Shown here one piece after another: positions 15,223-38,284 of a stretch of 64,000 nt of DNA. The notes beneath the pieces are model-generated. The model had not been told where the DNA came from, searched no databases, and was given only the letters and a program-made list of their open reading frames with translations. The stretch lies in contig DASPMO010000154.1 in the NCBI GenBank assembly GCA_035627015.1, forward strand, positions 3,537-67,536. Direction: 5' to 3'. This stretch comes from Thermoanaerobaculia bacterium. GTDB taxonomy: Bacteria > Acidobacteriota > Thermoanaerobaculia > Gp7-AA8. The position numbers and the translations under genes were made by a program. Position 1 is the stretch's first letter; the number at the start of each line of letters is the position of its first letter.

Positions 15223-15286
15223 TCACGGTCTTCGGTCCTGCCGCGAAAAACTCAGGACCTCCGTCCGTCTATGACGACATCTCCCT

Positions 15287-16723: not shown

Positions 16724-16875
16724 TTCCACAGCGGCGTTACTCCCTGCCAAGCCCCTTTCCGTGAGTCCGGAGGAACGCCGATATGCGGATTCTGTTGTAT
16801 GCTCGCGCGGACGCCCCAAAAGAGCGAACATCGCAGTCGGCGGCGCTCCGCGCACCGACAAGTGACCACTGGCCG

Positions 16876-20700: not shown

Positions 20701-20996
20701 CACGCACGCGCGCCGTGGTGCTTGCCGCGTGCGGCACCGCGCGCGGACAGCGCCGCGCCGGCGAGGCGACCCTCAGCGTCGCGAGCGCATTCCTCGCCGC
20801 GGGCGCTCCGAGCGTCGTGGCGACCCTCTGGCCCATCGACGACGATCCCGCCGCGGAGTTCTTCCCGCGGCTCCATCGCTATCTCGCGGATGGCTTCAGT
20901 CCCGCTGAAGCGGTCCGCGCCACGCAGCTCGAATGGATTCGAAGGCGCGATGCCCCGCCCGGCCTCTGGGCGGCGGTCCAAATCATCGGTAGCTGA
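17718..20996 (+). CDS. anti-sigma (zf-HC2) - TM - TPR - CHAT fusion protein
   Basis: N-terminal CPTPEQIAAFVAGNLSGDELTMVADHLRDCEDC matches the zf-HC2 anti-sigma pattern. TM helix: WWLAAAAAALAGIAYF. TPR-like repeats are present (ALRIDPRLAEALFNRALILERLG etc.). C-terminal CHAT dyad: ADVIHFVGHADI ... RAVVLAACGTARG. The gene is translationally coupled to the sigma factor. Confidence 0.85.
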   Translation: MTDDMSRCPTPEQIAAFVAGNLSGDELTMVADHLRDCEDCRSIAGDAAWVDRESEEATPAAAEPIRPPRRISPWWLAAAAAALAGIAYFTAWHGLAPDRNAAIHRLVAAAPRDGRYIEPRITGGFAWAPMLPVRRDDGEALEPRQMKLVGVAGEVLEEAAKDPSRETQHASAVAHLLAGRPNDAAEVLRTLASPTDARVWSDLAAARYTAGVQSNQPIRFAEALAAADAALRIDPRLAEALFNRALILERLGLRDRAREAWQQYLAADTASDWANEARKHLQQLQPVSDFREELERHYAHLVRDEAAARALAQRYPQEARLWGETQILGRWAEAYQQAKSEEAANHLRLARTFGDELARSRGDRMLHDAVAIILAADAEQRHDLAEAHLHFRAAQQRFMAAKPIEAAPLFEQAAREFERGKSPVVLLARYFLANTKYARGRLAESQPSIEQLLATAPPQYPAHRAQVLWQAGLGKAGDGKWGAAIDALDESVRTFERLGEKRYAAVVRSILAEVYDQIGDRRAAETTRMLALQELGRTEDSRLQVTVQAAARAAAMDRDWPVSLSFFDLLLAMPRRGRSDLLQANSLLFRARIRGRVGQSAGAAADLADATEAIGRIEDPDVRARAEADHLAVTGFLAASPADAVAHLTRAMEFHRTKGRRMFLPEMYLERGRAYAALGNRPAASADYEAGIQELETQRRSLRPGDERWGIFASGAELFDEAVALALARGDEAAAFAYSERARARELLDSMGDTPAAEALASLPLAPAGTVLIEYAALPSSLVTFVVDRRGLRVVQTPVSRITLALETERLADSALRSDTARFRKEAALLYSRLLMPIANEISDGRTLVFVPDTTLSVVPFAALMDATGKHVIERNPVVTSPSAAVFARLSSRPRSAERTLRLLLIAGPAGQEGNVRQLTSAQREADAVAAAYDETIEPKNDDRASFESSAAEADVIHFVGHADIPASGSEGALVTSRGANGRLDVRSIASLRLTRTRAVVLAACGTARGQRRAGEATLSVASAFLAAGAPSVVATLWPIDDDPAAEFFPRLHRYLADGFSPAEAVRATQLEWIRRRDAPPGLWAAVQIIGS

Positions 20997-21976: not shown

Positions 21977-22908
21977 GAAGCGAACGTGACGCCGAGTGCC
22001 GACAGAACGTCACCGATCGGATTGGCGTAGCCGCGCCCCCAGTTGCCTGGACCGCCCGCGCGCGTATTGAGGAAGAGCAGCCCCACGGGCTCGCAGTCAC
22101 GCGTGAAGACGAGCGAGCCACTGTCGCCCGGCAGGCACCACGGCGCCGCGTCGCGCGATTCGATCTCGATCTGGCCCGAGAACGAGAGGCGGCCGCAGCG
22201 ATAGTCGACGTCGAAGAAGTCGAGCTCGATCGCGGTGATGATCCCCTGCGTCCGACCCGTCGTGCGACCGATCTTCTCCACCAAAAGCTGTGTCTCGGCG
22301 ATGGCAACCGTCGATCGCAGTCGCTCGGTCGGACTGAGCGCCAGCGGGTCGAAGGAAAGACCGGGGACGAGCCGTGCGAAAGCGCAGTCGACGCTCTGTC
22401 CTTCTGGCCGCAAACGGGGGTAGTCACCGCAGAGATGGCCGATGACGTCATTGGGAGAGCGCCCGGAGTCGGCGGCGGCGGGATGAAGAATCTCGTCCGC
22501 GTCGACGCCGCGATTCTGGGCGGCGAGTACGTGGTTGTTCGACACGACGCCGACCTCACCTCCCTTCACCGCGAAGAAGCCGATCGTGCCCGCGGGATGC
22601 TCGTAGTGCGCCACCGATGCGCCGATGGAGAGACTCCGCGTCGGCCGCGCATCGCTCGCCGGCAGTACGAGTCGCGGCCCCGTGTACTTGAGGTCCACCT
22701 CGCCAACCGCCTCTTTTTCGAGGTGCGCCAGCAGGTCGGGGTCGACGTCCTCCTCGCTGCGTGCGCGCACGGCCAGGCGGTGTTCGTCGGGTTTGCCGCC
22801 GAGCGCCACGCCGATGGCCATGTTGGCCTTCTCGTCGCTGCGCGCGGTCAGCCAGCGGGGATCGGCCGCGATCGAGCTTTTCAGATCACGAACGGAGCTC
22901 AATCTCAT
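21973..22908 (-). CDS. trypsin-like (S1/chymotrypsin-fold) serine protease
   Basis: Track ORF 21973..23433 trimmed to ATG 22908, which overlaps the upstream stop (ATGA). Candidate triad contexts: VVSNNHVLA (His), ADEILHP or SVDCAFARL (candidate Asp) and LPGDSGSLVF (the classic GDSG Ser). Confidence 0.8.
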   Translation of the reverse strand: MRLSSVRDLKSSIAADPRWLTARSDEKANMAIGVALGGKPDEHRLAVRARSEEDVDPDLLAHLEKEAVGEVDLKYTGPRLVLPASDARPTRSLSIGASVAHYEHPAGTIGFFAVKGGEVGVVSNNHVLAAQNRGVDADEILHPAAADSGRSPNDVIGHLCGDYPRLRPEGQSVDCAFARLVPGLSFDPLALSPTERLRSTVAIAETQLLVEKIGRTTGRTQGIITAIELDFFDVDYRCGRLSFSGQIEIESRDAAPWCLPGDSGSLVFTRDCEPVGLLFLNTRAGGPGNWGRGYANPIGDVLSALGVTFAS

Positions 22909-25295: not shown

Positions 25296-25305
25296 GGCCA
25301 GGCTT

Positions 25306-26442
25306 TCACTGCAGCCGCTCGCGAAGATTGCGCGGCTGCACGAGCGTCTCGAGGTAATCCGACTGCGGGCCGGACAGGCTGGCCTGTGACGCCGCGTCGA
25401 TGACGCGACTGCGATAACCATTCACGACCTCGTCGTCCGGCTTCTCCTCGGGCAGCAACTCGGCGATGAGGTGCAGCAGCGCGGATTGCAGCTTGCGTTT
25501 CACGCCCGGCGTGCAGTTGAGCTGCGAGGTCTCCGTCACGACTTCGATGAGGACGGACGCCAGACCACTCTGCCCAGCGGCGGGAAGAAGTGTCTGCGCG
25601 CCGGCGCTCGGACCGCCGAGGAGGTGGGAGCCGCCGGAGGCGAACGGATCGCCGGCACTACCGTTGAACAATGTGCGCACGCCGCCGATCATCTGGACGA
25701 AATCCGTCGGGGTGCGCACCGACGTCACGCCGTTCTGCATGCCCGCGTCGAGCGCGCGAACTCCGGCGTCGAGGATCCGGCGGCCGGCCGCGATCCTGGC
25801 GAGCTCGTTCGCGTGGTTTTCCTTGACCACATCGAGCTCGTGCTTCTCCTTGGCCACCGCGACGGCGACGTGAACTTCCGGCACGTCGTGATGCAGCTCG
25901 ATGTTCTGCACGTGCAGCCCGACGGAATTGGCCACGGAGTTCACCGACGGGATCACCGCGGCAACGACGTCGCTCTCGACGCGCCGGAACTGATTGGTGA
26001 TGTCGATCCAGCGGCACGACGCGACGCGCTTCTGCAGCGCGCCGACCGCCGCCTCGCGGACGATCCGAAGCGGATCGCGGTTGCGGTTGGCTACCAGCTC
26101 GCGCGGGTCGCTGACGCGGTACGTCAGATCGATCTTCAGCGTGAACGAGTGCAGCATGTCGTCCATCTTCACGTCGGCACCGAATTGCGCGGAGAGGAAC
26201 GACGCGGCAGGAACGGCGTACGCGAAGCAGCGCGATTCTTTGCGCCACGGCACGAGCTCTTCGAAGAACCCCTTCTTCTTTGCCTCCTCGCCCGGCACCA
26301 GGACGCGGCGGATCTTCTCGCCGCCGCCGGCGGTGCTTTCGAGCACGACGATGTGGTGGCCGTCGAGAGCGTCGGCATTGTGTTCTTTCAAGAGCTGGTG
26401 CGTGAAGGTGAGATTTTCGGCCACGGTGATCTCCTCGTTCAT
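25306..26442 (-). CDS. hypothetical protein with SPFH/Band-7-like central region
   Basis: 378-aa ORF. Its ATG overlaps the upstream stop (ATGA at 26439-26442). FTLKIDLTYRVSDPRELVANRNRDPLRIVREAAVGALQKRVASCRWIDI resembles the SPFH core pattern, followed by a helical segment (AVAKEKHELDVVKENHANELARIAAGRR). Confidence 0.55.
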   Translation of the reverse strand: MNEEITVAENLTFTHQLLKEHNADALDGHHIVVLESTAGGGEKIRRVLVPGEEAKKKGFFEELVPWRKESRCFAYAVPAASFLSAQFGADVKMDDMLHSFTLKIDLTYRVSDPRELVANRNRDPLRIVREAAVGALQKRVASCRWIDITNQFRRVESDVVAAVIPSVNSVANSVGLHVQNIELHHDVPEVHVAVAVAKEKHELDVVKENHANELARIAAGRRILDAGVRALDAGMQNGVTSVRTPTDFVQMIGGVRTLFNGSAGDPFASGGSHLLGGPSAGAQTLLPAAGQSGLASVLIEVVTETSQLNCTPGVKRKLQSALLHLIAELLPEEKPDDEVVNGYRSRVIDAASQASLSGPQSDYLETLVQPRNLRERLQ

Positions 26443-27326
26443 CGGAATGCGGCGTCGAGATTGGCCGCGACGGAGTTGGCCCGGTCGGCGTGGGCGCCCA
26501 GCACGATTGCCTGCCGCGCGAGCGCGTCATGCGAGTCGCTGTCGACCGTGCCGTGCCAGGAGTGCTGCGCAACGAGCGTCTTCAAGGCCGTCACGTCGCC
26601 GCGACGGAGCCGCTCTTCAAAGTGGAGCCGGAAGCGCCTCCGTCCCAGCAGCGCGATCTCGGTCTCGGTGAGCAGGCGCGCAGCGAGCGGTGCGTGCTCC
26701 TCTTCGGCGAGCGCGCGAATCCGCTCCAGCGAACCATCACGGACCGGATCCGGCTCTGCGTCGTCGGCGACGGCGCGCGTCGCGGTGCACACCTCGGCCG
26801 CGGCCGCGCTGCGCCGCTCGAGCGACGGCATGGAAGTCGTGACGCGAGCGAGCAGCGGCACGGCCATCCGCGAAACCAGGCCGGCGAGGTCCGACGCGCG
26901 GCGGAACTGCGCGTCCTGCATGCACTGCGTCATCGACGCGCCGAGTTGCACGAGCGACGCGACCGTGGGCAGTCGCTGAAGAAACTCCGTCACGGCGAGG
27001 CGCCGCAGCTCGTCGACCTCCTGGAGCGCGCGATCCACGTCGGACTTCGCCGCGACGCAAACTGCAATCCCCGCGAGCGCGTCGGCACCGCGACGAATCG
27101 CGCGCACCGCATCGCGCCACTGTCTCGTGTCGACCGCGCGTGCCGCGGCGCCGATCGCGTCGTCACGAACTGTGACCAGCTTGCCGGCGCCGCGCGGACT
27201 CCCCTGCACCGCGCGCGTGTCCATCAGGACTCGGACGGCATCCCGCATCTCCAGTTCGAGCTTGCCGTCGGCGAGCCGGCCATACTCGTACCGCCACAGC
27301 AGATGTTCCAGTTCGCGGACGCTCAC
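26439..27326 (-). CDS. hypothetical protein
   Basis: The 664-aa track ORF 26439..28433 overlaps the MotB-like and MotA-like genes out of frame. It is trimmed to GTG 27326, which overlaps the MotB-like stop (GTGA at 27323-27326). The product is helical. No motif recognised. Confidence 0.5.
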   Translation of the reverse strand: MSVRELEHLLWRYEYGRLADGKLELEMRDAVRVLMDTRAVQGSPRGAGKLVTVRDDAIGAAARAVDTRQWRDAVRAIRRGADALAGIAVCVAAKSDVDRALQEVDELRRLAVTEFLQRLPTVASLVQLGASMTQCMQDAQFRRASDLAGLVSRMAVPLLARVTTSMPSLERRSAAAAEVCTATRAVADDAEPDPVRDGSLERIRALAEEEHAPLAARLLTETEIALLGRRRFRLHFEERLRRGDVTALKTLVAQHSWHGTVDSDSHDALARQAIVLGAHADRANSVAANLDAAFR

Positions 27327-27964
27327 CTCGTGTCCAACCCCGAGAAGTAGATCCGGATCTCGATCCGCCGGTTGCGCGAGCGTTGTTTGTGTGCAGGGCG
27401 AGTGTGGGCGTAGCCGTTCGCGGAGAGTTGTCGCTCGTCGAGCGCAGGATCGCAGCGTTCGCTGAGGAACCGCAGCACCGCCAACGCACGCGCCGTCGAG
27501 AGCTCCCAATTGTCGCGGGGATACGTAGACCGAGACATCGCGGTGCTGTCGGTGTGCCCTTCGATCTGAATCTGGTCGTACAGGCGCGATTGTGAGGTCG
27601 CGTCGAGCCGGTGAATGACAGCCGCGAGACGGCGGAGCAGCGCCGCGCCGCGCGGCTGCAAAGCGTAGTGACCCGACTCGAAAAGGATGCCTTCGCCGAA
27701 CGTGATCTGCAGCAGGTTCACATCCGGCTTCAGGACGATGGCGCCGCTGCGGATCTCGCTGGCGAACTCGCTCTCGAACACAGCGTCGAACCGCTGCTGC
27801 TTCTGTCGCGCGATCTCGGTCGCGAGACTGGTCGGATTGATGTTGTGCTGAACGAAATAGATCAGCATGAAGAACATCAGCAGCGAAGTGAGCATGTCGA
27901 TGATGCCGGGCCAGAAATTGACCTCGGTATCGACAGTCGGCGCGCGTAGGGACGTCGAGATCAT
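27323..27964 (-). CDS. MotB/OmpA-family stator subunit (peptidoglycan-binding)
   Basis: The N-terminal TM FWPGIIDMLTSLLMFFMLIYFV carries the conserved Asp (cf. MotB ..DFMT..MAFF). The C-terminal OmpA-like domain reads FESGHYALQP...IQIEGHTDS...NWELSTARALAVLRFL...GYAHTRP...NRRIEIRIY. Confidence 0.85.
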   Translation of the reverse strand: MISTSLRAPTVDTEVNFWPGIIDMLTSLLMFFMLIYFVQHNINPTSLATEIARQKQQRFDAVFESEFASEIRSGAIVLKPDVNLLQITFGEGILFESGHYALQPRGAALLRRLAAVIHRLDATSQSRLYDQIQIEGHTDSTAMSRSTYPRDNWELSTARALAVLRFLSERCDPALDERQLSANGYAHTRPAHKQRSRNRRIEIRIYFSGLDTR

Positions 27965-27973
27965 GCATTTGCC

Positions 27974-29176
27974 TCAATTCAACGTGCGCAGGATGAGAAT
28001 GACGACCACGGCGATCATCGCGCCGGCGGCAGCGAACCCGAACGTGCGCCGTCCCGTTGCCGTCTGACTGGCCTGCAGCGCGCGGGCGAGACGTTCCACC
28101 GACCCTTGTTGTGCGTTCATCGACGTTTGGATCTGCTGCAGCGTGGTCTCGTGTGTCTGGCGGAACGTCGTGACGATCTGCGGCAGGCGTTCGGTCAGAC
28201 TGAGAATCGCTCCCTGCACGTTCGCGAGTTGCGCGATGACGCCGGTCATTTCGCCCGTCACGCTCTGCAGCGGAGCGGTAGCCGCACGTTGCGTAATGGC
28301 CTCGATGTTTTGAATGACCGTCCCGAACGTGGTCTCCACGGCGGCCATCTGCTCCGCCGACCGCGCCTGCGCGGTGGCAAGGGACTGCAGGTTCTCGAAC
28401 GAGTCGCCGAGTTGACGCGAGAGTTTCTCCCACGGCGTCTCGTCATCAAACGCCGGAATCGTTGCCGGGAGCAGCTCTTCGGTAGTGAACCGCTCGAGCT
28501 GGTCATAGAACATCGATTGCGCGCGGGCGAGACCGAAGTTGAACAGCGAGACGACGATGGAGAAGAAGATGCCGGCGAGCGTCGCCGAGAACGCGGTCTT
28601 CTTGCCGGCGAGAATGCGCCCGAGGCTGCCGACGGATGCGGCCCATTGCGTGGCGGTCGCACCGGAGGATTGGTCGGGCATCGCCTGCTGGATGTCGGCG
28701 ACCATCAGGGAGAGGCCGACGAACGTCCCCAGCAGACCGAGCATCATGACTAGGCTCACGACGTATGCGGGAAGGGAGAGGCTCCACTTTGCGCTCTCAC
28801 TGAGAACGCTGCTCTGCTGCAGCGCGCCGACGTTCACCTTCACGTGCGCGTGCTTCATGCGCAAGATCGTGTCGAGCCGGTCGCCGATCAGCGTCGTCCT
28901 GGGAACGCCCTCGGATAGTTGCTGAAGGTCGACGCTGCCGCTGGCCCGCGGCACCTCGGCGTCTCCTTCGGCGGCAGGGGGCGTCTCGCCGGCGGCCTGC
29001 ATGCGGCGCAGTTTGTCGCGGACGTTCTGCAACGTAGTGAGCTCGTGCGACGTGTAGCGCTGCCAATGCCTGCTCGCGCAAAACGTGCCGAACACGCCAA
29101 AGAAGACGATGAGGCAGATGATCAACCGCCCAACGAGCGTGTTGTTCAGCCACAGAAGCTCGAGGAGCTGCGTCAC
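27974..29176 (-). CDS. MotA/TolQ/ExbB-family proton-channel protein with extended C-terminal helical tail and terminal TM anchor
   Basis: GTG 29176 overlaps the upstream stop (GTGA). Channel motifs: VVSLVMMLGLLGTFVGL (cf. ExbB/TolQ LGLLGTV.G) and AFSATLAGIFFSIVVSLFNFGL (cf. AL..T..GL..AIP....N). A Gln/Ala-rich helical tail of about 150 aa follows. The terminal hydrophobic helix is FGFAAAGAMIAVVVILILRTL. Confidence 0.8.
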   Translation of the reverse strand: MTQLLELLWLNNTLVGRLIICLIVFFGVFGTFCASRHWQRYTSHELTTLQNVRDKLRRMQAAGETPPAAEGDAEVPRASGSVDLQQLSEGVPRTTLIGDRLDTILRMKHAHVKVNVGALQQSSVLSESAKWSLSLPAYVVSLVMMLGLLGTFVGLSLMVADIQQAMPDQSSGATATQWAASVGSLGRILAGKKTAFSATLAGIFFSIVVSLFNFGLARAQSMFYDQLERFTTEELLPATIPAFDDETPWEKLSRQLGDSFENLQSLATAQARSAEQMAAVETTFGTVIQNIEAITQRAATAPLQSVTGEMTGVIAQLANVQGAILSLTERLPQIVTTFRQTHETTLQQIQTSMNAQQGSVERLARALQASQTATGRRTFGFAAAGAMIAVVVILILRTLN

Positions 29177-29679
29177 GGCCTGCGTTTCCTGCTCGTCATC
29201 GTCACGCCTGTGATGACCACTGTGCGATCGACCACGATGTCGCCTGCGCCAACCGAGCCGTGTACGTTCTCGCCACGCATCGCCTCGCCATCGCCGATGA
29301 CGCCGTGGATCTCGGCCTTGGGCCCGTGGACGTTCCGCACCTGAGCGTCGCCGTGCACCGGGCCGCGACTCGTGACGTGGCTCATCATGCCGCCCAAGCC
29401 AGAAACGCGAGTTCCGTCCTGGGCACCGGCCGGGCTTTCCGCACCGTCCAGCGGCAGGACGACGAGCCAGGAGCGATCGCGCGCGCCGGAGCGTACGCGT
29501 TCGAGCGCGCGTTGCAGTTCATCGTTCGCCGCACAGGCGATGAAGAACACCGCGTCGTCGATGGCATCGACGTCGTGTTCACGAACAGTGAAATCCGCCG
29601 ACTCCAGTGCGGCGCGGATGGTGCGCACACGCGGCGCCTGTTCGGGGTTGAACGAGAGATAAACATCGCCCATCGACAT
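29173..29679 (-). CDS. two-domain protein: N-terminal TIR-like/flavodoxin-like domain plus C-terminal bactofilin-like beta-helical repeats (tentative)
   Basis: 168-aa ORF. The N-terminus GDVYLSFNPEQAPRVRTIRAALESADFTV...AVFFIACA resembles the start of TIR-like domains (DVFISY...). The C-terminus VHGDAQVRNVHGPKAEIHGVIGDGEAMRGENVHGSVGAGDIVVDRTVVITG is a short-period V.G repeat of the kind seen in bactofilin/DUF583. Confidence 0.5.
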   Translation of the reverse strand: MSMGDVYLSFNPEQAPRVRTIRAALESADFTVREHDVDAIDDAVFFIACAANDELQRALERVRSGARDRSWLVVLPLDGAESPAGAQDGTRVSGLGGMMSHVTSRGPVHGDAQVRNVHGPKAEIHGVIGDGEAMRGENVHGSVGAGDIVVDRTVVITGVTMTSRKRRP

Positions 29680-29725
29680 ACCGTTCTCTCCTCGGGAGCG
29701 TCAGACGGACGCAGTGCACCGTTTT

Positions 29726-30361
29726 TCAGAGGTGGCGCAGCGTTTCGTCGCGATGGCGGTCGTATTCGGCCTGTGTGATCGAGCCGTTGCGCAGCAGACG
29801 GTCGAGCTCCGCGAGTCGCGCCTGTACACTCTCCGTTTGACTCGGAACGCCGACGAAAGCTGGCCGTCGTCCGTGCGCGAGCAGCCACCAGCGGCGGAAG
29901 AATTGGTACAGCCCACCGCCGAGTAGTGCGACGACGAGACACATCACGAAGAACAGCCAGCCAACGCTGATCCCCCAGAGGCACCCCACCGCTGCCCACG
30001 TGACCGTGAGGTTCCTCAGCCGCCCCAGTACCCACCGCCACGACGCCGCGAGGCCGAAGTACCACGACCAAAAGACGTACCCGGTGAAGAGGAATCGCGA
30101 CAACAACTGCGACGGCGTCGGCTTACGCCACTGCGGTGAAACAGGGGCGACAGGCACGTGCCTGGTGGCGTGCCGTTCCGTCGTCGTCGGCGCGGTGCTG
30201 GTCGTCGGTCGGTAGGACGGCTGCTGGACCAGCATCAGCACGGAGATCATGCCCGTGAACACGAAAACCAGCCAGGAGAACGCGATCCACGGATCGAGGA
30301 TCAGATGAGAGAACGCTGAAGGCGGAGCTTTGGCGGCCACTACCGATGTCGTCGCGGACAT
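29726..30361 (-). CDS. multi-pass membrane protein with C-terminal SHOCT-like domain
   Basis: Track ORF 29726..30475 trimmed to ATG 30361 (ggagga immediately upstream). Several hydrophobic helices are present (ILDPWIAFSWLVFVFTGMISVLML; WLFFVMCLVVALLGGGLY). The C-terminus RLAELDRLLRNGSITQAEYDRHRDETL matches the SHOCT pattern. Confidence 0.6.
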   Translation of the reverse strand: MSATTSVVAAKAPPSAFSHLILDPWIAFSWLVFVFTGMISVLMLVQQPSYRPTTSTAPTTTERHATRHVPVAPVSPQWRKPTPSQLLSRFLFTGYVFWSWYFGLAASWRWVLGRLRNLTVTWAAVGCLWGISVGWLFFVMCLVVALLGGGLYQFFRRWWLLAHGRRPAFVGVPSQTESVQARLAELDRLLRNGSITQAEYDRHRDETLRHL

Positions 30362-31392
30362 GTCCTCCAATGCGCTGCAGACGGACGGGACACCGTTCTT
30401 TTTGCATCGACAAAACGACCGACTGCCAGTAAGCACGCCCGCACATATCGCCCATTCAATTGAGGAGGAGTTCAATCGTAACGCGTGTGTCTCGTGCCTT
30501 CGTCTGTCCTTTCGTTCTCGCCTTCACCGTCAGCGCCTTTGCCCCGGGGGAACGGTGGCGCTCATCGCGATGGCGGTTATGGCGGCCCTGCTGGCTACGC
30601 TCAGCACGTTCGTGCGCGAGTTGCTGGAGGGCAAGCATTGGCCGGAGACGTTCTTCATTCCGGGGGTACTGGCAATTGTGCGATGTCACGAATTGGCAGA
30701 AGGAGCTGGCGATGCTCGCAATGCCGGACCACCGGAAAAGACAGCGCCTACAGCGGCTTGCAACCAGCCCCGGAGGCGCTGGGATCCGCTGACCGCAGCA
30801 AACAGGACCCGAGTGTCTTCACGATCAAACGCATTGCCGAGCGGCTCGACAACGGCGAGTGACCTCCTCGGCGAAGCAACACCCGACGTCATCGTCACCG
30901 ATCGCCGCCGGCTTCGCGACTCGATTGAACCGTGAGCGCATCGCACTCGACGCGGTAGTGAGTACCTGACAGCGCCGCTCGAGTGTCACTTCCGCGGGCC
31001 GGCGGAGCGTTTCATCGAACTCGAATTGAACTTCAGGAATCAAAGGAGATTGGCCGCTGCTGATAACCGAGTGCTGCACTCGCTCTGCGACAGTCGGAAC
31101 GGCTCGCTGCAGGTGATTCGCGTCATCGGTGACTCGATCTCCGACCTCCTTCTTGATAGGTACGAGGTTCTCCTCGATACCGCATGCAGACGCGGAGTGA
31201 ACGCGACGTCGTGGCGGTTTAGGTCCGGCCCGAAGGAATGACGCGGCTACCTTGCGCGAGGGGGATCATTATCGACAAGCACAACCCAAGTACGATTCCG
31301 TTCGCCTCAGCCATCGTAGCGACTGACAAATAACCCACCAAAAGCACGATCTTCCACGGCTGAAGGGTGTGTCCACGCACCAAATCGAGTGC

Positions 31393-31599
31393 ACCTTGCG
31401 AGTCGGCCGAAACCCGCAAGGTGACTCGCAAGGTCGCCCGCAAGTTACTCGGTTTCAGTGAGTTATCCCACCGTCTGTAGATCGACTTCTCTCTAACCTA
31501 AGTACCCGCGCCCTCCGGCCTGTCACACCGGAGGGCGCGGGAGCCCCGTCGGCCCCGCCAAAATAAGACGCTCACCAGCCGCCACTTGGCGGCTTTTTT
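31393..31599 (+). ncRNA. candidate structured non-coding RNA or leader (three hairpins ending in an intrinsic terminator)
   Basis: 12-bp stem: ACCTTGCGAGTC (31393-31404) pairs with GACTCGCAAGGT (31423-31434). 13-bp stem: CCGCGCCCTCCGG (31506-31518) pairs with CCGGAGGGCGCGG (31528-31540). Terminator hairpin at 31577-31599. No convincing ORF lies here, and the stretch looks less GC-rich than its flanks. Confidence 0.35.
31577..31599 (+). terminator. rho-independent terminator-like hairpin
   Basis: AGCCGCCA-CT-TGGCGGCT followed directly by TTTTTT (GCCGCCACTTGGCGGCTTTTTTC). Confidence 0.6.
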
Positions 31600-31729
31600 C
31601 GTTTCAGCACACGAAAGCGACGAAGTGCCTCCGTGTCTGGTGTCGGGATGGCGAACGTGTAGCCCCAAGCCGGACTTTCCTGGTTTCGGCTACGCCTGGG
31701 TAGGAAAACCGCCATCCCGTGGCTCTCCT

Positions 31730-34700
31730 ATGGAGATGAGCGACGACGTTCAGATCCGGCTCGTGCACGTGGAGTTTCTCCGTCCCGGGCCTCCGCACAA
31801 CCAGCTTCTCTCGCCGCTGACGCAGTACCTCGCCATTTCCGGTGACAGCGGAGCCGGCGTGGTCACGGTGCCGTACGAGCAGGCGGAGTTCTCGCGCCGC
31901 CTCAAGCAACTCCGGTACGACTCGGGGGATCCCGAGGATCGCCTGGCCATGCTGCATTCGACCGGCGTCGAGATGAGCAGGATCCTCGGCGCGGTGCCCG
32001 GGCTGGCCGGTGCACTCACGATGGATGCGAATCACCAGGGAACTCTGATTCAACTTCGCATCACGCTCTCCGCGTCCGAGCTCGCGATGCTGCCGTTCGA
32101 GCTGGCGAAGGCGCCGGTGTCGGCGACGAACACCGCGGAGAACTGGCTGTCGATCCAGACCCGGCCGCCGGTTTGCGTCACGCGCAACATTCGCACGGTC
32201 TCACCCGAAGGGGTCGTCTGGCCGGATCAGCCGCGCATTCTGTTCATTTCCGGGAATCCCGGTGACGTGCCCTACGAGCAACATCGCAAGGCGCTGCTCA
32301 AGGCGATCGAGCCGTTTCAATATCCCGACGAGGACGATGTCGTCGTGACGGAGGAGGGGCGCGAGCAGGGCGGCAGGCTCCTGACGATTCTCGTCGATCC
32401 GACTCTCGCCCGCGTGCTCCGCGAGTGCAGGGAAAACGAGTACACCCACGTCCACATCCTGACGCACGGCGATCTCAACGAGGCCTCGCCTGACTCGTAC
32501 GGGCTGGTGATGCGCGGCGAGGACGGCTCGCCCGAGGTCGTTTCCGGAGACCAGTTCGCCACCGCGCTCGCCTCGGTCCATCACCGGCCGACGGTGGTGA
32601 CCGTGGCCAGTTGCGACAGCGGCAATGTGAATCAGGTCGCGCAACCCGGCGCGAGCTTCGCGCACGCCCTGCACCAGTCGGGGATTCCGCTCGTCCTCGC
32701 ATCGCAGTTTCCGCTGAGCAAGCCAGGTTCGGTGCCGCTCGCGGCGACGCTGTACGACGGCCTGCTCTGGGGGAAGAACCCGCTCGTGCTCCTGCGGGAG
32801 CTCCGCGCGGAGCTGCATACGGTGTACACATCGAAGTGGCATGACTGGGCCAGCCTCGTGGTGTACGAAGCGTTGCCGCAGGCTCTCAACGAGCAGCTGG
32901 AAAAGCTCCGCTATTTTCAGACCAAACGCGCCATCAACGCCACGCTCGAACGAATCGACCGCGCGGTCAAACGGGCCCTCGAAGAGCGAAGCGTGGCCAG
33001 TCTCGAGAAACTCCACAAAGAGATCGAATCCGCGGTCGGGCGGCTGCCGCTCAAAGGTCCGTACTCGGCCGAATGCATCGGCATCCGCGCGAGCGCGCGC
33101 AAACGGCTCGCGCAGGCGGCCTTCAACACTCCCGAATCCCCGCGCGATGCGTATGACCTGCTCGAACAGGCCTACATCGACTACAAATGCGCGGCGGACT
33201 CGCTGCTGGTCATCAGCGAAGGGCCGGCACAACGCGTGGCCACGCTGCACTGGCTGCTCGTGCAGCTCGAATCGCTCGACATGATCCTCGGCCGCGAAGG
33301 CGACGACCGGCGCTGGACCGCCGCTCATCTCTCTGCCGAGATGTACCGGCATCATCTCGACACCGAGCAACGCGCATGGGCTCACGGCAGCCTGGCCGAG
33401 CTCTTTCTCGTGAAGCTCGGCAAAGCCGGTCTGAACGAGGAAGATCGCGAAAAGCATCACCAGGACGTCCTCCAGCACATTCACGAGCTGGTGAAGCTCT
33501 ATCCGCTGCGCACCGAGTTTCCGGTGAAGTCGACGCGCAGGCAGTTCGAGCGCTATGCCGACTGGTGGGGCTCGCAGCAATTCGAAGATGGGTTGAAAGA
33601 GCGCGGGCTGACCCGCCGCGCGCCGTGGGATGGCCAGCACGGCGTGACGCAGGTGGCGAAAGAGGTCGTGAAGATCATGCAGCGCAACCTCCGTCCTCCC
33701 GTCAAGCCGCCTTCTTCCGGATCTGCCGGCGGCAACGGCGGCGGTGCGCCGGAGCCGCCGCCGAAGCCGAGCGGCGGCAAGCCTGGCGGCGGTGCGACGC
33801 TCTCGCGCCGCGCGCGCACCAAGCCTTTCTTCGACATCACCATGCTGCCGGCGGGGCATGGCGACTCGCTGTGGATCGAGTACGGCCAGAACGAGCGCGA
33901 CGTGCATCGCGTGCTCGTCGACTGCGGAACGCAGCAGACGGCGAGGGAGCTGCTGAAGCGCGTCGCCGCGCTGCCGAAACGCGAGCAGTTTTTCGACCTG
34001 TTCATCCTCTCGCACATCGATTCCGATCACATCGGCGGTGCGCTGCCGTTCTTCAAAGCCGTCCGCGATGGCCTGCGCTTCGGCGACGTCTGGTTCAACG
34101 GCTGGCGCCATCTGTCGGACCGGCTCAGCGCGCGGCAGGGGGAGATGTTCTCGACCGCGATTCAGGATCTCGAGCTGCCGTGGAATGTCTGGATGGATGG
34201 CGGGGCCATCGTCATCGGCAACGGAAAGCTGCCGACGTCCACGCTGCCCGGCGGGATGAAGCTCACGCTGCTCTCGCCGACGCCGAAGCAGTTGCAGAAG
34301 CTCGCACCCGTCTGGACCCGGGAGCTCAAGCGCTACGCTCTCACGCCCGGCGCACGCATGGACTACAGCCAGTTCCTCAAGGGCAAGCCGTCGACCTCGA
34401 CGGACCTCGACGAGCTCGCGGAGACGCCGTTCAGCAGCGACCCGGCCGCGCCGAACGGCTCGAGCATCGCCGTCCTCGCCGAGTACGAAGGCGCCGTCGC
34501 CCTCCTCGGCGCCGATGCGCACGCGCCGGTGCTCACCGAATCGCTCGGCAAGCTGCTCCCGCGCGGCAAAACACGGCTGAAGATCGACGCGTTCAAGGTC
34601 TCCCATCACGCGAGCCAGAACAACGTCAGCAGGGAGCTGGTCTCGATGCTCGATTGCCCCCGCTTCCTCGTGTCGAGCAACGGCGCGCACTTCAACCATC

Positions 34701-34885
34701 CCGACCGCGAGGCCATCGCCCGGATCATCAAGTACCGCAAGATCGGCGATCGCAAGCCCGAGCTGATCTTCAACTACCGCACGCCGCTCAACGACGTCTG
34801 GGAGGGACTGCAGGACCGCTACGGCTTCACGGCCCACTACCCGGCGGAGGAACCGGGACAGGTTGTGAGTTTGCTGCCGGAGTAG
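31730..34885 (+). CDS. CHAT protease - helical region - Gly/Pro linker - metallo-beta-lactamase-fold (ComEC-C-like) hydrolase fusion protein
   Basis: Track ORF 31586..34885 trimmed to ATG 31730, because the upstream part overlaps the terminator hairpin. CHAT dyad: YTHVHILTHGDL ... VVTVASCDSGN. Linker: PPVKPPSSGSAGGNGGGAPEPPPKPSGGKPGGG. MBL motifs: ITMLPAGHGDSLWIEY, VLVDCGT, LFILSHIDSDHIGG, FKVSHHASQNN. Confidence 0.8.
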   Translation: MEMSDDVQIRLVHVEFLRPGPPHNQLLSPLTQYLAISGDSGAGVVTVPYEQAEFSRRLKQLRYDSGDPEDRLAMLHSTGVEMSRILGAVPGLAGALTMDANHQGTLIQLRITLSASELAMLPFELAKAPVSATNTAENWLSIQTRPPVCVTRNIRTVSPEGVVWPDQPRILFISGNPGDVPYEQHRKALLKAIEPFQYPDEDDVVVTEEGREQGGRLLTILVDPTLARVLRECRENEYTHVHILTHGDLNEASPDSYGLVMRGEDGSPEVVSGDQFATALASVHHRPTVVTVASCDSGNVNQVAQPGASFAHALHQSGIPLVLASQFPLSKPGSVPLAATLYDGLLWGKNPLVLLRELRAELHTVYTSKWHDWASLVVYEALPQALNEQLEKLRYFQTKRAINATLERIDRAVKRALEERSVASLEKLHKEIESAVGRLPLKGPYSAECIGIRASARKRLAQAAFNTPESPRDAYDLLEQAYIDYKCAADSLLVISEGPAQRVATLHWLLVQLESLDMILGREGDDRRWTAAHLSAEMYRHHLDTEQRAWAHGSLAELFLVKLGKAGLNEEDREKHHQDVLQHIHELVKLYPLRTEFPVKSTRRQFERYADWWGSQQFEDGLKERGLTRRAPWDGQHGVTQVAKEVVKIMQRNLRPPVKPPSSGSAGGNGGGAPEPPPKPSGGKPGGGATLSRRARTKPFFDITMLPAGHGDSLWIEYGQNERDVHRVLVDCGTQQTARELLKRVAALPKREQFFDLFILSHIDSDHIGGALPFFKAVRDGLRFGDVWFNGWRHLSDRLSARQGEMFSTAIQDLELPWNVWMDGGAIVIGNGKLPTSTLPGGMKLTLLSPTPKQLQKLAPVWTRELKRYALTPGARMDYSQFLKGKPSTSTDLDELAETPFSSDPAAPNGSSIAVLAEYEGAVALLGADAHAPVLTESLGKLLPRGKTRLKIDAFKVSHHASQNNVSRELVSMLDCPRFLVSSNGAHFNHPDREAIARIIKYRKIGDRKPELIFNYRTPLNDVWEGLQDRYGFTAHYPAEEPGQVVSLLPE

Positions 34886-34944
34886 CGTGACCTCTCGGCT
34901 GCCCGCTGGCGCAGCGAGCTCGTCAGGGGTACCATTTCGCCATC

Positions 34945-35514
34945 ATGAAAAACCTATTCGCGGTGCTCCTGCTCGCCATGGCTCTGTCTGCCGCCGCCGC
35001 GGAGGAACCGAAGAAGCCGGCCGATTTCACGGGGCCGGCGACGATGTGCAACGGCACGTACGCCCTCTGCATCAAGGCGCCGTGCGAGAAGAAGCCGGAC
35101 GCGAATAATCTCTATCCGTGCGGCTGCGTCATCCAGACCGGCTGGAACATGGGACCGAACTCGTGCGACGACCGGCAGAAGAACCTCACCTCGACGTACT
35201 CGAACCTGTTCAACCTCGGCAGCGCCACGGTCAGCTGCCCGGCGTCGACGCAGTGGGCGTGGTGCTACGGCGCGAAGTGCGAGGTCGACCCGCGCGACCC
35301 GACGCGGGCCATCTGCAAGTGCCCGACGAGCACCAAGCCGACCGTGATCCTGGTGAGCCAGGCCATGTGCTCCGACCCGGGCAAGGTCTGCGGGATGCTC
35401 TGGTCGGGAGCGACGCCTGCCGAGAGCAAGTTCGCGAACGAGTATTACTACTGGTGGATGACCACGAACGGGCAACAGTCGAATCTGCCCTCGACGGCGT
35501 GCGCGTCGAACTAG
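34945..35514 (+). CDS. secreted cysteine-rich protein, function unknown
   Basis: Signal peptide: MKNLFAVLLLAMALSAAAA. The mature part has about 16 Cys (CNGTYALCIKAPCEKK...CGCV...CKCP). Confidence 0.65.
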   Translation: MKNLFAVLLLAMALSAAAAEEPKKPADFTGPATMCNGTYALCIKAPCEKKPDANNLYPCGCVIQTGWNMGPNSCDDRQKNLTSTYSNLFNLGSATVSCPASTQWAWCYGAKCEVDPRDPTRAICKCPTSTKPTVILVSQAMCSDPGKVCGMLWSGATPAESKFANEYYYWWMTTNGQQSNLPSTACASN

Positions 35515-35517
35515 CGA

Positions 35518-35873
35518 TTTCAGCGAGTTCGCTGAAATCGCAAGCGATTGCGCTTCGAAGTTAAGAGAACTCGCTGAAAAATCGTGACTGCGCGCTTGCG
35601 ATTTCAGCGAGTTCGCTTAAGTTTCAGCGAACTCGCTGAAATCGCCACTGAATTCGCGGACAAATTCAGCGAACTCGCTGAAAGTACCAGCGTGCATTGG
35701 CCACATTTTCAGCGAGTTCGCTGAAAATGCAGCGCGCCAAGCCTGCGTTTTCAGCGAGTTCGCTGAAAATATGGCGGATCACCGCTGCATTCGCGGCAGT
35801 CAACGTTCCATTTTCAGCAGTTACGCCGAGGTGGGCGGTGGCATCGGTATGATTTTCAGCGGACTCGCTGAAG
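35518..35873. repeat. array of about 9 copies of a 20-bp perfect palindrome TTTCAGCGA(G/A)(T/C)TCGCTGAAA (operator-, iteron- or centromere-like)
   Basis: Full copies start at 35518, 35602 (degenerate 3' end), 35622, 35664, 35707, 35749 and 35854. Right-half or degenerate copies start at 35560 and 35812. Start-to-start spacings are 42, 42, 20, 42, 43, 42, 63 and 42 bp. The last copy abuts the SD (AAGGAGGA) and ATG 35883 of the XRE gene. Confidence 0.85.
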
Positions 35874-35882
35874 GAGGAAGCG

Positions 35883-36245
35883 ATGAAGGTGCGTGAGTTT
35901 GGAGTGCGGCTGACGCAGTTTCGCGAGCGGCAGCACCTGTCGATGACCCAGCTCGCGAACCTCCTCGGCATCGACTACATGCAGATCTCGCGCTACGAGA
36001 AGGGGCAGAGCCTGCCGTCGCTCGAGACCGCGATGCGTCTCGCGAAGGTTCTCCAGGTCTCCCTCGACGAGCTCACCGGCAGCGAGCCTCCGCCGGGCCC
36101 GCCCGCGTTCACCAACACCCGCCTCTTCGAGCGCATGCGCCAGCTCGACCAGCTTCCCGCCCACCGACAGGAGCTCGCCCTGCGTGTCCTCGATACAGTC
36201 ATCTCGGGGCACGAGCTCGAAAGCCTGGCGGGACGGCTTCGATGA
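35883..36245 (+). CDS. XRE-family helix-turn-helix transcriptional regulator
   Basis: LTQFRERQHLSMTQLANLLGIDYMQISRYEKGQSLPSLETAMRLAKVLQVSLDEL is a typical HTH_3/XRE domain. A strong SD is present. The stop overlaps the next start (ATGA at 36242-36245). Confidence 0.85.
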   Translation: MKVREFGVRLTQFRERQHLSMTQLANLLGIDYMQISRYEKGQSLPSLETAMRLAKVLQVSLDELTGSEPPPGPPAFTNTRLFERMRQLDQLPAHRQELALRVLDTVISGHELESLAGRLR

Positions 36246-38284
36246 TCCACGTGAAGCGGCCCCCCGCGTCTCCGCACCTCGCCGCGGTACTTGAGCGTGC
36301 GGCGGCGCGGACCAATCAGGAATTCAAGAAGCACCGTGGGGCGCAGACGAGATTCGAGTTCTCGCGGAAGGAGTGGAGTGAGGCTGCGCTCCCTCTGTAC
36401 ACGATGTTCCACGGCAAGTGCGCGTATTGCGAGACGCCATTCGACAGGTGGGCGGGTGGAAACGTCGATCATTTCCGGCCGAAGCTGGGGGCGTGCGACC
36501 TCGAGGGCACGATCGATCCGAATCACTACTACTGGCTCGCCTACGATTGGTCGAATCTCTACATCGGTTGCGGCGAATGTGAGCTGAACAAGAAAACGTT
36601 CTTTCCCGTAGAAGGAAAGCGCGCACCCATTGATGGCTCGATCCGCGGTGAGCAGCCACTTCTGATCGACCCGTGCGGTGAGGACCCGAGGAAGCACCTT
36701 CGGTTCCTGAGTGACGGGTACGTCCGACACACTTCGATTCGTGGAAATGTGACGATCAAGCTGCTGGGCCTGAACCGCATGTCGCTGGTCGAGAAACGGA
36801 TGGCTGCGATCGAAGAAGCCGAGCTCAGGCTCCGGAACGGTGCCACCCCGGTAGAGCTGACCGCGCCGCACGTTCCGTATCTCGCCGCGATCATGGACAC
36901 CCTCCCCGTACGACACGCCGCGCGCCGGGTGGCGATGTCCGTGCAGGAACCGCTGGCAAAGAAACAGACGGCAGTCTCGAAAAAGCTGGCCGCCACCGCC
37001 ACCGCCTTCCGCACCGGCGGCTTCCTCAAACGCATCGTCCTCACCAACTTCCGCAGCATCCGGAGTCTCTCGCTGAACATCACTCCCTCGCAGGGGGAGG
37101 AGCAGGCGGGGTGGCTGATGCTCCTCGGGGAAAACGCGGCAGGCAAGTCGTCGATCCTGCAGGCCGTCGCTCTCGCGCTGGCTGGCGACGAGGGACTCGA
37201 GGGGTTCGAGCAGGAATCGTTCGACGCGATGATCCGCAACGGCACGAGCGCGGCGACGGTGATCGTCGAAACGTCGGCCGATCCGCCGCGCATCGAGCTG
37301 CAATTTCAGCGCGGCAAGCGCCCGCACTTCGTGCACGGCGGCGACGGATATCCGGGCCTGGTTCTCGGCTACGGCGCGACGCGCATCGCGGACGATAAAG
37401 CGAAGGTCAGCGGCAGCACGAGCGCGCGCCGCATCCTCAACCTCTTCGACCCGCGGGTGCGGCTGACGCCGGCCGAGGCGTGGCTGCTCGAGCTGTCGAA
37501 GAGCTCCAAGGCATTCAACGACGCGGCGAAGTCGCTCAAATCGCTGCTGCGGATCACCAACGTCAGGACGCCGCTCACCGTCCGCAACCGGCGCATCCGC
37601 ATCGACCACGGCAATGGTCCGGTCCTCGTCGAGCAGCTGAGCGCCGGGTATCACGCGATGCTCGGCCTCGGGATCGACATCATGCAGGCAGCGCCGGCGC
37701 AGATGACGGACAAACGCTACGCCTCCGGGATCGTCATCCTCGACGAGATCGACGCGCACCTGCATCCGCGCTGGAAGATGAACGTGGTCGGGTTGCTGCG
37801 CGACGCCTTTCCGATGATTCAGTTCATCGTGAGCACGCACGAGCCGCTCTGCCTGCGCGGCACGAAGCGCAAAGAAGTGGTGTTGATGCGGACGAACGAG
37901 AAGCGCGCCGTCGAAGCGGTGACCGACCTGCCGCCGCACGAGACCATGCGCGTCGACCAGTTGCTGACGTCGCCGCTGTTCGGCCTCCACACCACCCTCG
38001 ATCCCGAGGTGGAGAAGGAGTTTCGCGACTACTACGCGCTGCTGGCGAAGCCGACCCGGACGGCGAAGGACCGAAGGATCATCGCGGCGAAAAAAGAGCA
38101 GCTCTCGCGTCACGGAATCCTCGGTTACACGCGCCGCGATCAGCTCATCTACGAATGGATCGACGACTTTCTCGCACAGGAGCCGCTGCTCGACAGGGAA
38201 GGGCGTGCGAAATTGAAGGAGGAGACGAAGCAGAAGGTGCTGTCCCTCTGGCGGCGCGCCGCGTCCGCGGGGAGCCCGGCATGA
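36242..38284 (+). CDS. fusion of N-terminal HNH-type nuclease domain with ABC/SMC-like (AAA_15/21-type) ATPase (PtuA-like)
   Basis: HNH: GKCAYCETPF...NVDHFRPK...WSNLYIGCGECELNK. ATPase: IVLTNFRSIRSLSL, Walker A LMLLGENAAGKSSIL, Walker B GIVILDEIDAHLHPRW, and IQFIVSTHEP. Confidence 0.8.
   Translation: MIHVKRPPASPHLAAVLERAAARTNQEFKKHRGAQTRFEFSRKEWSEAALPLYTMFHGKCAYCETPFDRWAGGNVDHFRPKLGACDLEGTIDPNHYYWLAYDWSNLYIGCGECELNKKTFFPVEGKRAPIDGSIRGEQPLLIDPCGEDPRKHLRFLSDGYVRHTSIRGNVTIKLLGLNRMSLVEKRMAAIEEAELRLRNGATPVELTAPHVPYLAAIMDTLPVRHAARRVAMSVQEPLAKKQTAVSKKLAATATAFRTGGFLKRIVLTNFRSIRSLSLNITPSQGEEQAGWLMLLGENAAGKSSILQAVALALAGDEGLEGFEQESFDAMIRNGTSAATVIVETSADPPRIELQFQRGKRPHFVHGGDGYPGLVLGYGATRIADDKAKVSGSTSARRILNLFDPRVRLTPAEAWLLELSKSSKAFNDAAKSLKSLLRITNVRTPLTVRNRRIRIDHGNGPVLVEQLSAGYHAMLGLGIDIMQAAPAQMTDKRYASGIVILDEIDAHLHPRWKMNVVGLLRDAFPMIQFIVSTHEPLCLRGTKRKEVVLMRTNEKRAVEAVTDLPPHETMRVDQLLTSPLFGLHTTLDPEVEKEFRDYYALLAKPTRTAKDRRIIAAKKEQLSRHGILGYTRRDQLIYEWIDDFLAQEPLLDREGRAKLKEETKQKVLSLWRRAASAGSPA

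Follow-up and report, generated by a model that had tools for sequence, protein, structure and literature searches.

A CHAT caspase-like protease fused to a predicted gated ComEC-like pro-nuclease in a Thermoanaerobaculia bacterium: a candidate single-chain effector of abortive infection

Introduction

A gene at 31730..34885 (+ strand) of a 64,000-nucleotide stretch of DNA from a Thermoanaerobaculia bacterium (assembly GCA_035627015.1, contig DASPMO010000154.1, positions 3,537 to 67,536; hereafter the window) joins a CHAT caspase-like protease to a hydrolase of the metallo-beta-lactamase (MBL) fold, and raises the question of whether the two enzymes act separately or whether one controls the other. 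The original prediction took the product to be a single polypeptide and considered either a two-effector protein or a self-activating one, in which the CHAT protease would cut a flexible linker and release the MBL domain. The computational analysis reported here leads to a different answer. We consider it probable that the protein is a single-chain caspase-nuclease effector of abortive infection, in which a helical domain senses or oligomerizes, the CHAT protease cuts two loops within the MBL fold, and a DNase is thereby unleashed.

Protease-gated nucleases were recognized only in 2025, and work on them has dealt with multi-protein systems in which the partner is a trypsin-like protease or a paracaspase. 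In HamM, the active site is blocked by two loops, and mass spectrometry has located the cuts made in them by the partner trypsin-like protease directly C-terminal to I118 and I218; once cut, HamM is an indiscriminate DNase (PMC12799240). Avs1a behaves in the same way at I134 and I234. Defense is abolished by I134K and I234K in Avs1a, and by either G104K or G189K in CanC, the caspase-associated clade "canu" having been demonstrated with KaeCanABC (PMC12799240). Evans et al. distinguish three MBL clades tied to trypsin-like, caspase-like, and subtilisin-like proteases, describe a Zn-dependent double-stranded DNA nuclease freed by two cuts, and list a metallophosphoesterase (MPE) as a protease-associated effector of unknown mechanism (10.1101/2025.11.14.688446). 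The supplement of Tuck et al. includes "caspase-/CHAT-" proteases among the operonic partners of these nucleases (PMC12799240).

Results

The coding sequence 31730..34885 is a single open reading frame (ORF) of 1051 amino acids plus stop, in agreement with the one polypeptide originally predicted to begin at ATG 31730, and the 33 homologues aligned with it start likewise. Conservation is given below as the major-residue frequency in this 34-sequence alignment, and all features of the gene lie on the + strand. The N-terminal region and the CHAT domain (caspase-like, clan CD) occupy amino acids (aa) 1-380 (31730..32869). Pfam CHAT (PF12770) matches aa 85-378 (31982-32863) with an E-value of 1.4e-23 and 84 bits against a cutoff of 24, and the PADLOC SAVED_CHAT model matches the CHAT core alone (aa 220-375, E 9e-17). 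The expected motifs are present in order, HVHILTHGDL at aa 240-249 and VVTVASCDSGN at aa 289-299, and contain the catalytic His246 (motif ILTHGD, codon 32465..32467) and Cys295 (motif ASCDSGN, codon 32612..32614), both of which are invariant in the alignment. The region as a whole has a frequency of 0.77, and the AlphaFold2 full-length model places a CHAT-type alpha/beta region at the N-terminal side. A sequence search of the PDB with CHAT returned one weak match (8rot_B, E 0.003). With a domain above the Pfam cutoff and a His/Cys catalytic dyad, the protein is a member of the CHAT peptidases.

The C-terminal part, aa 700-1051 (33827..34882), is a ComEC-like MBL-fold domain. Pfam Lactamase_B matches it with an E-value of 3.6e-6, and PADLOC models of defense-system MBLs span the entire domain, led by LmuA-MBL (1e-69, 320 of 345 profile positions) and followed by Avs1a (7.5e-43) and the reverse transcriptase-associated (DRT) MBL (5e-42). 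Against KaeCanC, whose sequence was taken from Table S1 of Tuck et al. (PMC12799240), aa 705-1048 give an end-to-end alignment of 362 columns in which 33% of residues are identical (E 8e-60), compared with 29% for a trypsin-associated MBL. The full-length model shows an MBL-type alpha/beta domain here, and when modeled alone, the domain has a predicted local distance difference test score (pLDDT) of 81.6 and a predicted template modeling score (pTM) of 0.86. Among solved structures, Foldseek places it closest to 9ic4, the MBL domain of ComEC (E 2.3e-12), ComEC is likewise found by profile search (E 6e-6), and a phmmer search of the PDB with the domain gave no match. Both predicted domain assignments, CHAT and ComEC-C-like MBL, are thus upheld by Pfam and PADLOC, with ComEC MBL domains as the best PDB relatives. 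The window domain is about 90 amino acids longer than 9ic4 (354 against 266).

All four predicted MBL motifs are in place (GHGDS at 709-713, VDCGT at 730-734, SHIDSDHIGG at 761-770, and VSHHAS at 957-962). The metal-binding motif H762-x-D764-x-D766-H767 (34013..34030) is invariant in the alignment, as are the further ligand-type residues D712, D731, D929, H959, H960, and H990, and the region has a frequency of 0.78. A ComEC-like fold with intact metal motifs, end-to-end homology, and one conserved aliphatic residue at the predicted P1 position of each loop, as described below, together place this domain by homology in the family of protease-activated, gated pro-nucleases that includes HamM, Avs1a, and CanC. 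A genetically linked protease is also present: the CHAT domain lies in cis in most of the approximately 53 MBL-bearing genomic relatives and in more than 120 metagenomic proteins, and it is encoded by the adjacent gene in two loci (L018 and L030; L numbers denote related loci throughout).

Two stretches of the MBL domain correspond to the gating loops of this family, namely loop 1 at aa 793-804 (34106..34141) and loop 2, an insertion, at aa 865-912 (34322..34465). In the full-length model, pLDDT falls below 50 at aa 793-802 and 865-885, and in the domain-only model it does so at aa 799-804 and 872-884; the low-scoring parts of loop 2 also include aa 904-907. The two loops lie at the positions homologous to the insertions that block the active site in this family, and any such occlusion in the window protein, where loop 1 is short, is putative. 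Despite the predicted disorder the loops are conserved, with frequencies of 0.86 (loop 1) and 0.80 (loop 2) against 0.31 for the interdomain linker. Among 162 relatives, the motif of loop 1 is L-[G/S/N]-A-[R/K]-Q-G-E, with Leu in 160 of 162 and at position 799 in the window protein, and that of loop 2 is [F/L/M]-L-[K/R/G]-G, in which the Leu (883 in the window protein) is present in all 162.

The cut-site sequence of EpiAvs1a was obtained by translating the published I134K mutant plasmid. In a BLASTP alignment, its site 1, H-E-I134/S-A-R-Q-G (the slash marks the cut), aligns residue for residue with L799-S-A-R-Q-G of the window protein, so that the equivalence of cut sites is, on this alignment, exact for Leu799; I134 is itself the counterpart of the Ile at which HamM is cut. 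Site 2 of Avs1a, V-I234/N-A-R-T-P, falls in the same loop as F-L883-K-G-K-P, although I234 and L883 are not aligned with each other by BLASTP. In CanC, L103-G104 and M188-G189 coincide with or adjoin Leu799 and Leu883, respectively, and the two glycines align no more than two residues away. Because of the Avs1a alignment and the position of the CanC pairs, cuts are predicted after Leu799 (bond Leu799-Ser800, codons 34124-34129) and after Leu883 (bond Leu883-Lys884, codons 34376-34381). Cuts after Gly/Ser800 and Gly885, considered by analogy with CanC G104K and G189K, were dropped once the Avs1a alignment had been obtained. The CHAT protease Csx29 cleaves after Leu or Met, and an invariant Leu at P1 would suit such a protease.

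Cleavage at the linker, which had been proposed to release the MBL domain, is a different matter. The Gly/Pro/Ser-rich linker (aa 656-699, 33695..33826) contains the predicted PPVKPP...KPGGG stretch at aa 656-688 and is long, disordered (pLDDT below 50 at aa 654-690 of the full-length model), and accessible, and activation by autoproteolytic release is a common logic. However, no part of the protein is less conserved than this linker, which has no conserved motif (frequency 0.31) and varies from 40 to 87 amino acids across homologues. It is missing altogether where the two halves are separate genes: in L018 (Actinomycetota) a 653-aa CHAT-helical gene is followed at the very next base by a 358-aa MBL gene, and in L030 (Entotheonella) the corresponding genes are 10 nucleotides apart. 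The free MBL proteins of these loci match the same PADLOC models. A free MBL domain is therefore tolerated and must be controlled otherwise, and separation from the protease cannot be the activating event. Moreover, the characterized relatives are free-standing and inactive until cut inside the MBL fold. We thus regard activation by cleavage of the linker as unlikely, and cleavage within the two loops remains the preferred reading.

Between the CHAT domain and the linker lies an all-helical repeat domain of about 275 amino acids (aa 381-655, 32870..33694). The helical middle that had been predicted is borne out by the AlphaFold2 full-length model (mean pLDDT 75), in which it consists of eleven long helices at high pLDDT (aa 386-650), and the region has a frequency of 0.63. 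A PDB search with a profile of this domain gave no match, and Foldseek with the whole protein against the PDB found generic TPR/ARM/14-3-3 solenoids at weak scores (best E 1.6e-3) that are uninformative for the sensor and CHAT domains. The Pfam family TPR-S (PF20308, "Tetratricopeptide Repeats-Sensor") matches 10 of 29 homologous middle domains, with a best E-value of 2e-6, and no other family recurs among the 29. The match of the window's own domain (E 0.041, 14.9 bits) lies under the cutoff of 27.6. The domain is thus weakly TPR-S-like by profile comparison and is a candidate sensor or oligomerization domain.

The fusion itself is widespread. More than 120 full-length homologues with 54-72% identity and approximately 100% coverage were found in NCBI, JGI, ENA, and Logan assemblies, and a scan of 185,579 species genomes (one genome per species, queried with alignment A1) yielded 365 relatives in several phyla, or about 0.2% of species. 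The genome-contig scan found nothing when queried with the single protein in place of this alignment. Intact fused ORFs of 1050-1190 amino acids occur in Acidobacteriota, Burkholderiales, Ilumatobacteraceae, Planctomicrobium, Verrucomicrobiia, Methylococcaceae, and Accumulibacter. They are also found in the isolates Pseudaquabacterium terrae S2 (L009) and Bradyrhizobium sp. ARR65 (L023), as well as on a closed chromosome of 7.66 Mb (L013). Throughout, the linker is coding and lies in frame. An assembly or frameshift artifact joining two neighboring genes could be entertained in view of the two-gene versions in L018 and L030, but the full-length homologues from independent assemblies and the fused ORFs in isolates and on a closed chromosome refute it, and we assign it a negligible probability.

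Broken CHAT-MBL frames were also observed. Stops or frameshifts interrupt the gene in L012, L020, L022, L041, L047, L048, L053, and L056, and also in L051 and L054; several of these are in metagenome-assembled genomes (MAGs) labeled MFD, and the tblastn matches run on to the C-terminus. They represent either indel errors or pseudogenes and were left out of the count of natural split forms.

Other relatives retain the CHAT-helical part alone. We identified 19-20 of these (635-757 amino acids), with helical domains 27-33% identical to that of the window protein. An MPE gene, encoding a calcineurin-like protein of about 530 amino acids, lies directly 5' on the same strand in 16 loci (L055, L058, L060-L062, L064, L065, L068, L069, L072-L074, L076-L078, and L080; e.g., L078:6397-7989), and in the remainder the sequence is too short on the 5' side, with L044 as the sole other exception. 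This arrangement suggests that MPE is a CHAT-activated effector. When aa 1-655 were compared with 1.84 billion cluster representatives, 556 clusters matched at E <= 1e-30, and the best 150 of the 556 comprise about 14 fused proteins (1060-1145 amino acids) and more than 100 unfused ones (620-765 amino acids), with no other length class. Taken together, the two-gene forms, the MPE-linked relatives, and the length classes of the family show that CHAT-helical is a conserved cassette with exchangeable enzyme partners, the pattern expected of a zymogen-licensing protease.

A third recurrent enzyme is a Tle1-like/DUF2235 alpha/beta-hydrolase, the gene for which directly adjoins CHAT-MBL in 18-19 loci (L007, L008, L010, L014, L017, L019-L021, L026, L032, L033, L036, L039/L086, L041, L049, L057, L063, L070, and L087), or about one-third of the fused loci. 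It is found, for example, at L086:7627-8787, and in L087 it overlaps the CHAT-MBL start by 11 nucleotides. This hydrolase may be a second substrate or an effector, and it bears on the view that the CHAT protease and a constitutively competent MBL hydrolase are two independent effectors switched together by the helical sensor. Bacterial caspase-like proteases do include promiscuous executioners, such as the type IV Thoeris caspase and PCaspase, and the adjacent Tle1-like protein could be another CHAT substrate or an effector in its own right. Independent effectors would nevertheless leave two disordered but conserved loops, with an invariant Leu at positions equivalent to known cut sites, unexplained, and every tested member of this MBL family is a zymogen. 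Such independence seems to us improbable, if a little less so than linker cleavage, and we continue to favor a latent nuclease cut at its own loops.

In the window, CHAT-MBL is a stand-alone gene with a Zorya-like operon, encoded on the other strand, to one side and a Septu gene to the other, and the conflict-system context supposed for it holds. The upstream neighbor is an operon-like run of six genes at 22905-30475 (- strand) that encodes, in order, a 249-aa protein with a SHOCT-like C-terminus, a 168-aa protein, a ZorA-like MotA/ExbB protein (27974-29176, - strand), a ZorB-like OmpA protein (27323-27964, - strand; PADLOC ZorB E 1e-27), a 378-aa protein without matches, and a P-loop protein of 838 amino acids that weakly matches nSTAND3 (22905-25421, - strand). 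In its make-up the run resembles a motor of the Zorya type accompanied by non-canonical partners. A tie between CHAT-MBL and the STAND-like NTPase at 22905-25421 was considered and rejected, as that gene is on the opposite strand and inside the Zorya-like operon. On the downstream side, 35883-38284 (+ strand) encodes a 120-aa HTH_3 protein and a 680-aa PtuB(HNH)-PtuA(ATPase) fusion with a 4-base overlap; the PADLOC matches (PtuA 2e-183, PtuB 5e-42) identify a single-gene Septu with a putative regulator.

Whether the gene is immune at all can be weighed against these surroundings. A housekeeping or developmental role, such as in DNA uptake or turnover or in programmed cell death in social bacteria, with the nearby defense genes being there by chance, would fit a nearest solved fold from the competence protein ComEC, the non-defense neighbors at some homologues, and host lineages that are soil bacteria with large genomes. 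On the other hand, the window protein has no ComEC membrane or OB-fold domains, the family is distributed sporadically across unrelated phyla (~0.2% of species) in unconserved neighborhoods, the strongest profile matches are to defense-system MBLs, and in the window the gene has Zorya-like and Septu genes on either side. We therefore give a non-immune role only a slender chance, and interpret the gene as a probable defense effector located in a defense island.

Several other elements of the window deserve mention. At 34945-35514 (+ strand), 60 nucleotides after the CHAT-MBL stop, there is a 189-aa Cys-rich ORF with a signal peptide and a third-position GC content (GC3) of 0.92; it has no Pfam or PADLOC match and is absent beside CHAT-MBL homologues. 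Six large ORFs (548-1526 amino acids) at 1054-14784 (+ strand) are essentially without Pfam or PADLOC matches and are followed on the same strand by a 478-aa CHAT protein (15287-16723), an extracytoplasmic function (ECF) sigma factor (16783-17721), and a zf-HC2 anti-sigma-TPR-CHAT protein (17718-20996). The region 1054-20996 may be a separate large conflict or signaling locus. CHAT-MBL is thus indeed the third CHAT protein within 35 kb, and no BLAST similarity was detected among the three. Paralogy of CHAT-MBL with the other two, or with the CHAT-TPR-S giants of related loci, was rejected on the same ground. None of the partner genes that recur in related loci (Tle1-like hydrolase, TIR/TPR-S, C14 caspase, and MPE) is present in the window, which also contains no tRNA or tmRNA genes.

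With regard to the start codon, the uninterrupted ORF extends over 31586..34885 (+ strand), and ATG 31730 is the start position common to all 33 aligned homologues. An alternative ATG at 31736 would give 1049 amino acids, and the length of an identical public protein (1049 amino acids, 100% identity, "CHAT domain-containing protein", from a Thermoanaerobaculia MAG) is consistent with this second ATG. TTG 31586 was rejected as a start because it sits in the loop of a GC-rich, terminator-like hairpin with a T-run after it. Codon-position GC (GC3 0.84 and second-position GC2 0.45, in a genome of 65-70% GC) marks the frame as coding and the gene as genuine. The gap of about 1.25 kb on the 5' side (30476-31729) contains no convincing ORF and has a lower GC (0.62) outside its hairpins. 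Two strong hairpins occupy 31505-31604 (+ strand), 130-225 nucleotides 5' of the start codon, with a folding z-score of -4.3: hairpin 1 (31505-31540, + strand) has a perfect 14-bp stem, and hairpin 2 (31577-31604, + strand), the terminator-like one, has a 7-bp GC stem and a T-run. An upstream transcript or small RNA may end in this region, or the region may be a leader. An Rfam scan of 29500-36500 gave sub-threshold matches only.

The related loci are varied. Many carry genes for TIR-like/TPR-S, TIR-NB-ARC, TIR-patatin, nSTAND1, SIR2, or small C14 caspase proteins, whereas others are stand-alone homologues (L081, L083, and L085). Larger conflict-type loci were observed at L086:1-7555 and 12350-13183, L087:4862-7835 and 12217-15220, and L007:1158-6812, containing a DUF7379-hydrolase-CHAT-TPR-S protein of about 1900 amino acids, TIR-like/TPR-S (MAP3K_TRAF_bd), nSTAND1, and SIR2. 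A 277-aa Peptidase_C14 caspase lies directly downstream within these larger loci, where a CHAT-to-C14 protease cascade is conceivable. In Smithella and Dehalococcoidales, a TIR-transmembrane-TPR gene (TIR_2 E 3e-26) is located 3' of MPE-linked CHAT-helical genes (L058:7617-8768, L060:10091-11230, L061:8719-9855, and L073:10105-11253), and in a gammaproteobacterium a SLATT/DUF4231 membrane protein (L062:10142-10594) is encoded 3' of the CHAT-helical gene.

Discussion

The mechanism that we propose begins with a ComEC-like DNase that would be kept inactive by two loops situated close to its active site. The TPR-S-like helical domain would sense a trigger, which is probably a protein or state of phage origin, or would be driven by it to oligomerize, whereupon the CHAT protease (His246/Cys295) would be switched on. 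Its cuts in the MBL domain, following Leu799 and Leu883, would most likely be made in trans, by one molecule on its neighbor, with the Gly/Pro linker acting as a flexible tether only. The processed Zn-dependent DNase would degrade DNA indiscriminately, resulting in growth arrest or death of the infected cell. A functional link from protease to nuclease is likely. That CHAT does the activating, which bonds exactly are cut, that the MBL domain is a DNase, that the helical domain senses, and that the protein acts against phage are inferred.

A number of observations speak against this mechanism. The pairing of protease and substrate is drawn from the fusion and not from homology between proteases, and BLAST detected no similarity between the CHAT domain and CanA or between the helical domain and CanB. 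Loop 1 is 8 residues shorter than that of CanC and far shorter than those of trypsin-associated MBLs, and SARQGE runs into a helix and could owe its conservation to structure instead. The full-length model leaves the relative placement of the domains uncertain (pTM 0.55), the match to the NCBIfam Avs1a equivalog reaches 201 bits, under the cutoff of 420, and several homologues lie amid ordinary metabolic genes (L083 and L085).

More tentatively, the protein may be a complete one-gene immune system, comprising sensor, CHAT initiator, and zymogen MBL DNase, that processes itself in trans when it oligomerizes. CHAT-helical would then be a general zymogen-activating cassette, the partners of which (MPE, and perhaps the Tle1-like hydrolase) would be protease-activated zymogens as well. 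We consider this broader proposal possible but somewhat short of probable. The exchange of MBL for MPE on the CHAT-helical module nonetheless yields a testable prediction, namely that MPE, too, is an effector made as a zymogen and activated by a protease. A single-chain form would offer a minimal model of a caspase-family protease licensing a DNase, in one construct and at fixed stoichiometry. It would also bring CHAT proteases, for which Leu is the probable P1 residue, within the mechanism, and would show the mechanism to be common in under-studied soil phyla, e.g., Acidobacteriota, Burkholderiales, and Ilumatobacteraceae.

The architecture was originally thought to be undescribed, and this is correct in part: protease-activated MBL pro-nucleases, including canu, were published in 2025, while we found no description of the single-polypeptide form. 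In the text available we found neither the single-chain CHAT-TPR-S-like-MBL protein nor the MBL/MPE exchange on the cassette described, and the figures of the 2025 papers may show related loci. Literature searches that paired TPR-S and caspase, or MPE and CHAT, returned nothing, and the conflict-system papers of the Aravind laboratory make no mention of a caspase-MBL fusion.

Among known systems, the canu system KaeCanABC of Klebsiella aerogenes (PMC12799240) is similar in coupling a clan-CD cysteine protease to a downstream ComEC-like MBL pro-nuclease, in having two loops at the same MBL positions, with the defense-essential G104 and G189 of CanC near Leu799 and Leu883, and in that its published loci are variable and contain TPR domains. 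However, it consists of three proteins, and its protease CanA, which needs CanB, is a paracaspase of the MALT1 type bearing an Ig-like domain at its C-terminus, whereas the window protease is Pfam CHAT and not Peptidase_C14, is followed by helices instead of an Ig fold, and belongs to a single chain. KaeCanA has no BLAST similarity to the protein, and no CanB homologue is found in it or in the window. Judged from sequence, therefore, the window protein is not a CanABC system, despite having a CanC-type nuclease downstream of a protease within one chain.

The trypsin-MBL modules of Hachiman (HamMAB), Avs1/Avs2/Avs4, Lamassu, DRT, and short prokaryotic Argonaute systems (PMC12799240; 10.1101/2025.11.14.688446; 10.1101/2025.09.03.673762) share the same MBL zymogen family and dual-loop gating, and cut site 1 of Avs1a (I134/SARQG) matches L799/SARQG. 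They differ in using a serine protease fused to a STAND, HamA, or LmuA sensor, with Ile at P1 and a separate, usually upstream, MBL gene; the window protein has a cysteine protease N-terminal to the MBL domain in the same chain, a predicted Leu at P1, and no NTPase or helicase sensor. AVAST type 1 was rejected in view of the sub-cutoff Avs1a score (201 against 420 bits) and the lack of an adjacent trypsin-like protease/STAND gene, the sole nearby P-loop gene (22905-25421) being on the other strand and in a different operon. Lamassu was likewise rejected, as the LmuA-MBL model matches the MBL part alone and there is no LmuB (SMC-like) or LmuC among the neighbors.

The C-terminal MBL nuclease of ComEC is the nearest relative by solved fold and sequence and has an HxDxDH-type metal site, but it is part of a membrane DNA-uptake channel and has no gating insertions, while the window domain is predicted to be cytoplasmic, with no transmembrane or OB domains. 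The CHAT proteins of type III CRISPR systems (Csx29/Craspase, and SAVED-CHAT acting on PCaspase) resemble the window protein in their His/Cys CHAT fold and in the site-specific activation of a downstream effector; unlike them, it has no SAVED domain, gRAMP/TPR partner, CRISPR link (no cas genes among the ORFs scanned), or Csx30-like substrate, and its proposed substrate is its own C-terminal domain. Type IV Thoeris (TIR plus a caspase-like effector) was considered because TIR genes are frequent neighbors; it was compared by description only, and its published effector is not described as CHAT. Finally, an analogy drawn by Evans et al. (10.1101/2025.11.14.688446) concerns caspase-3 and ICAD-CAD (DFF45/DFF40), in which a caspase-family protease also licenses a latent DNase, one that destroys the DNA of the cell. 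It is an analogy only, since CAD has no relation to MBL nucleases, and what is cleaved to free it is a separate inhibitor and not the nuclease. Set beside these systems, the CHAT-MBL protein represents an extension of a known principle and does not overturn current understanding.

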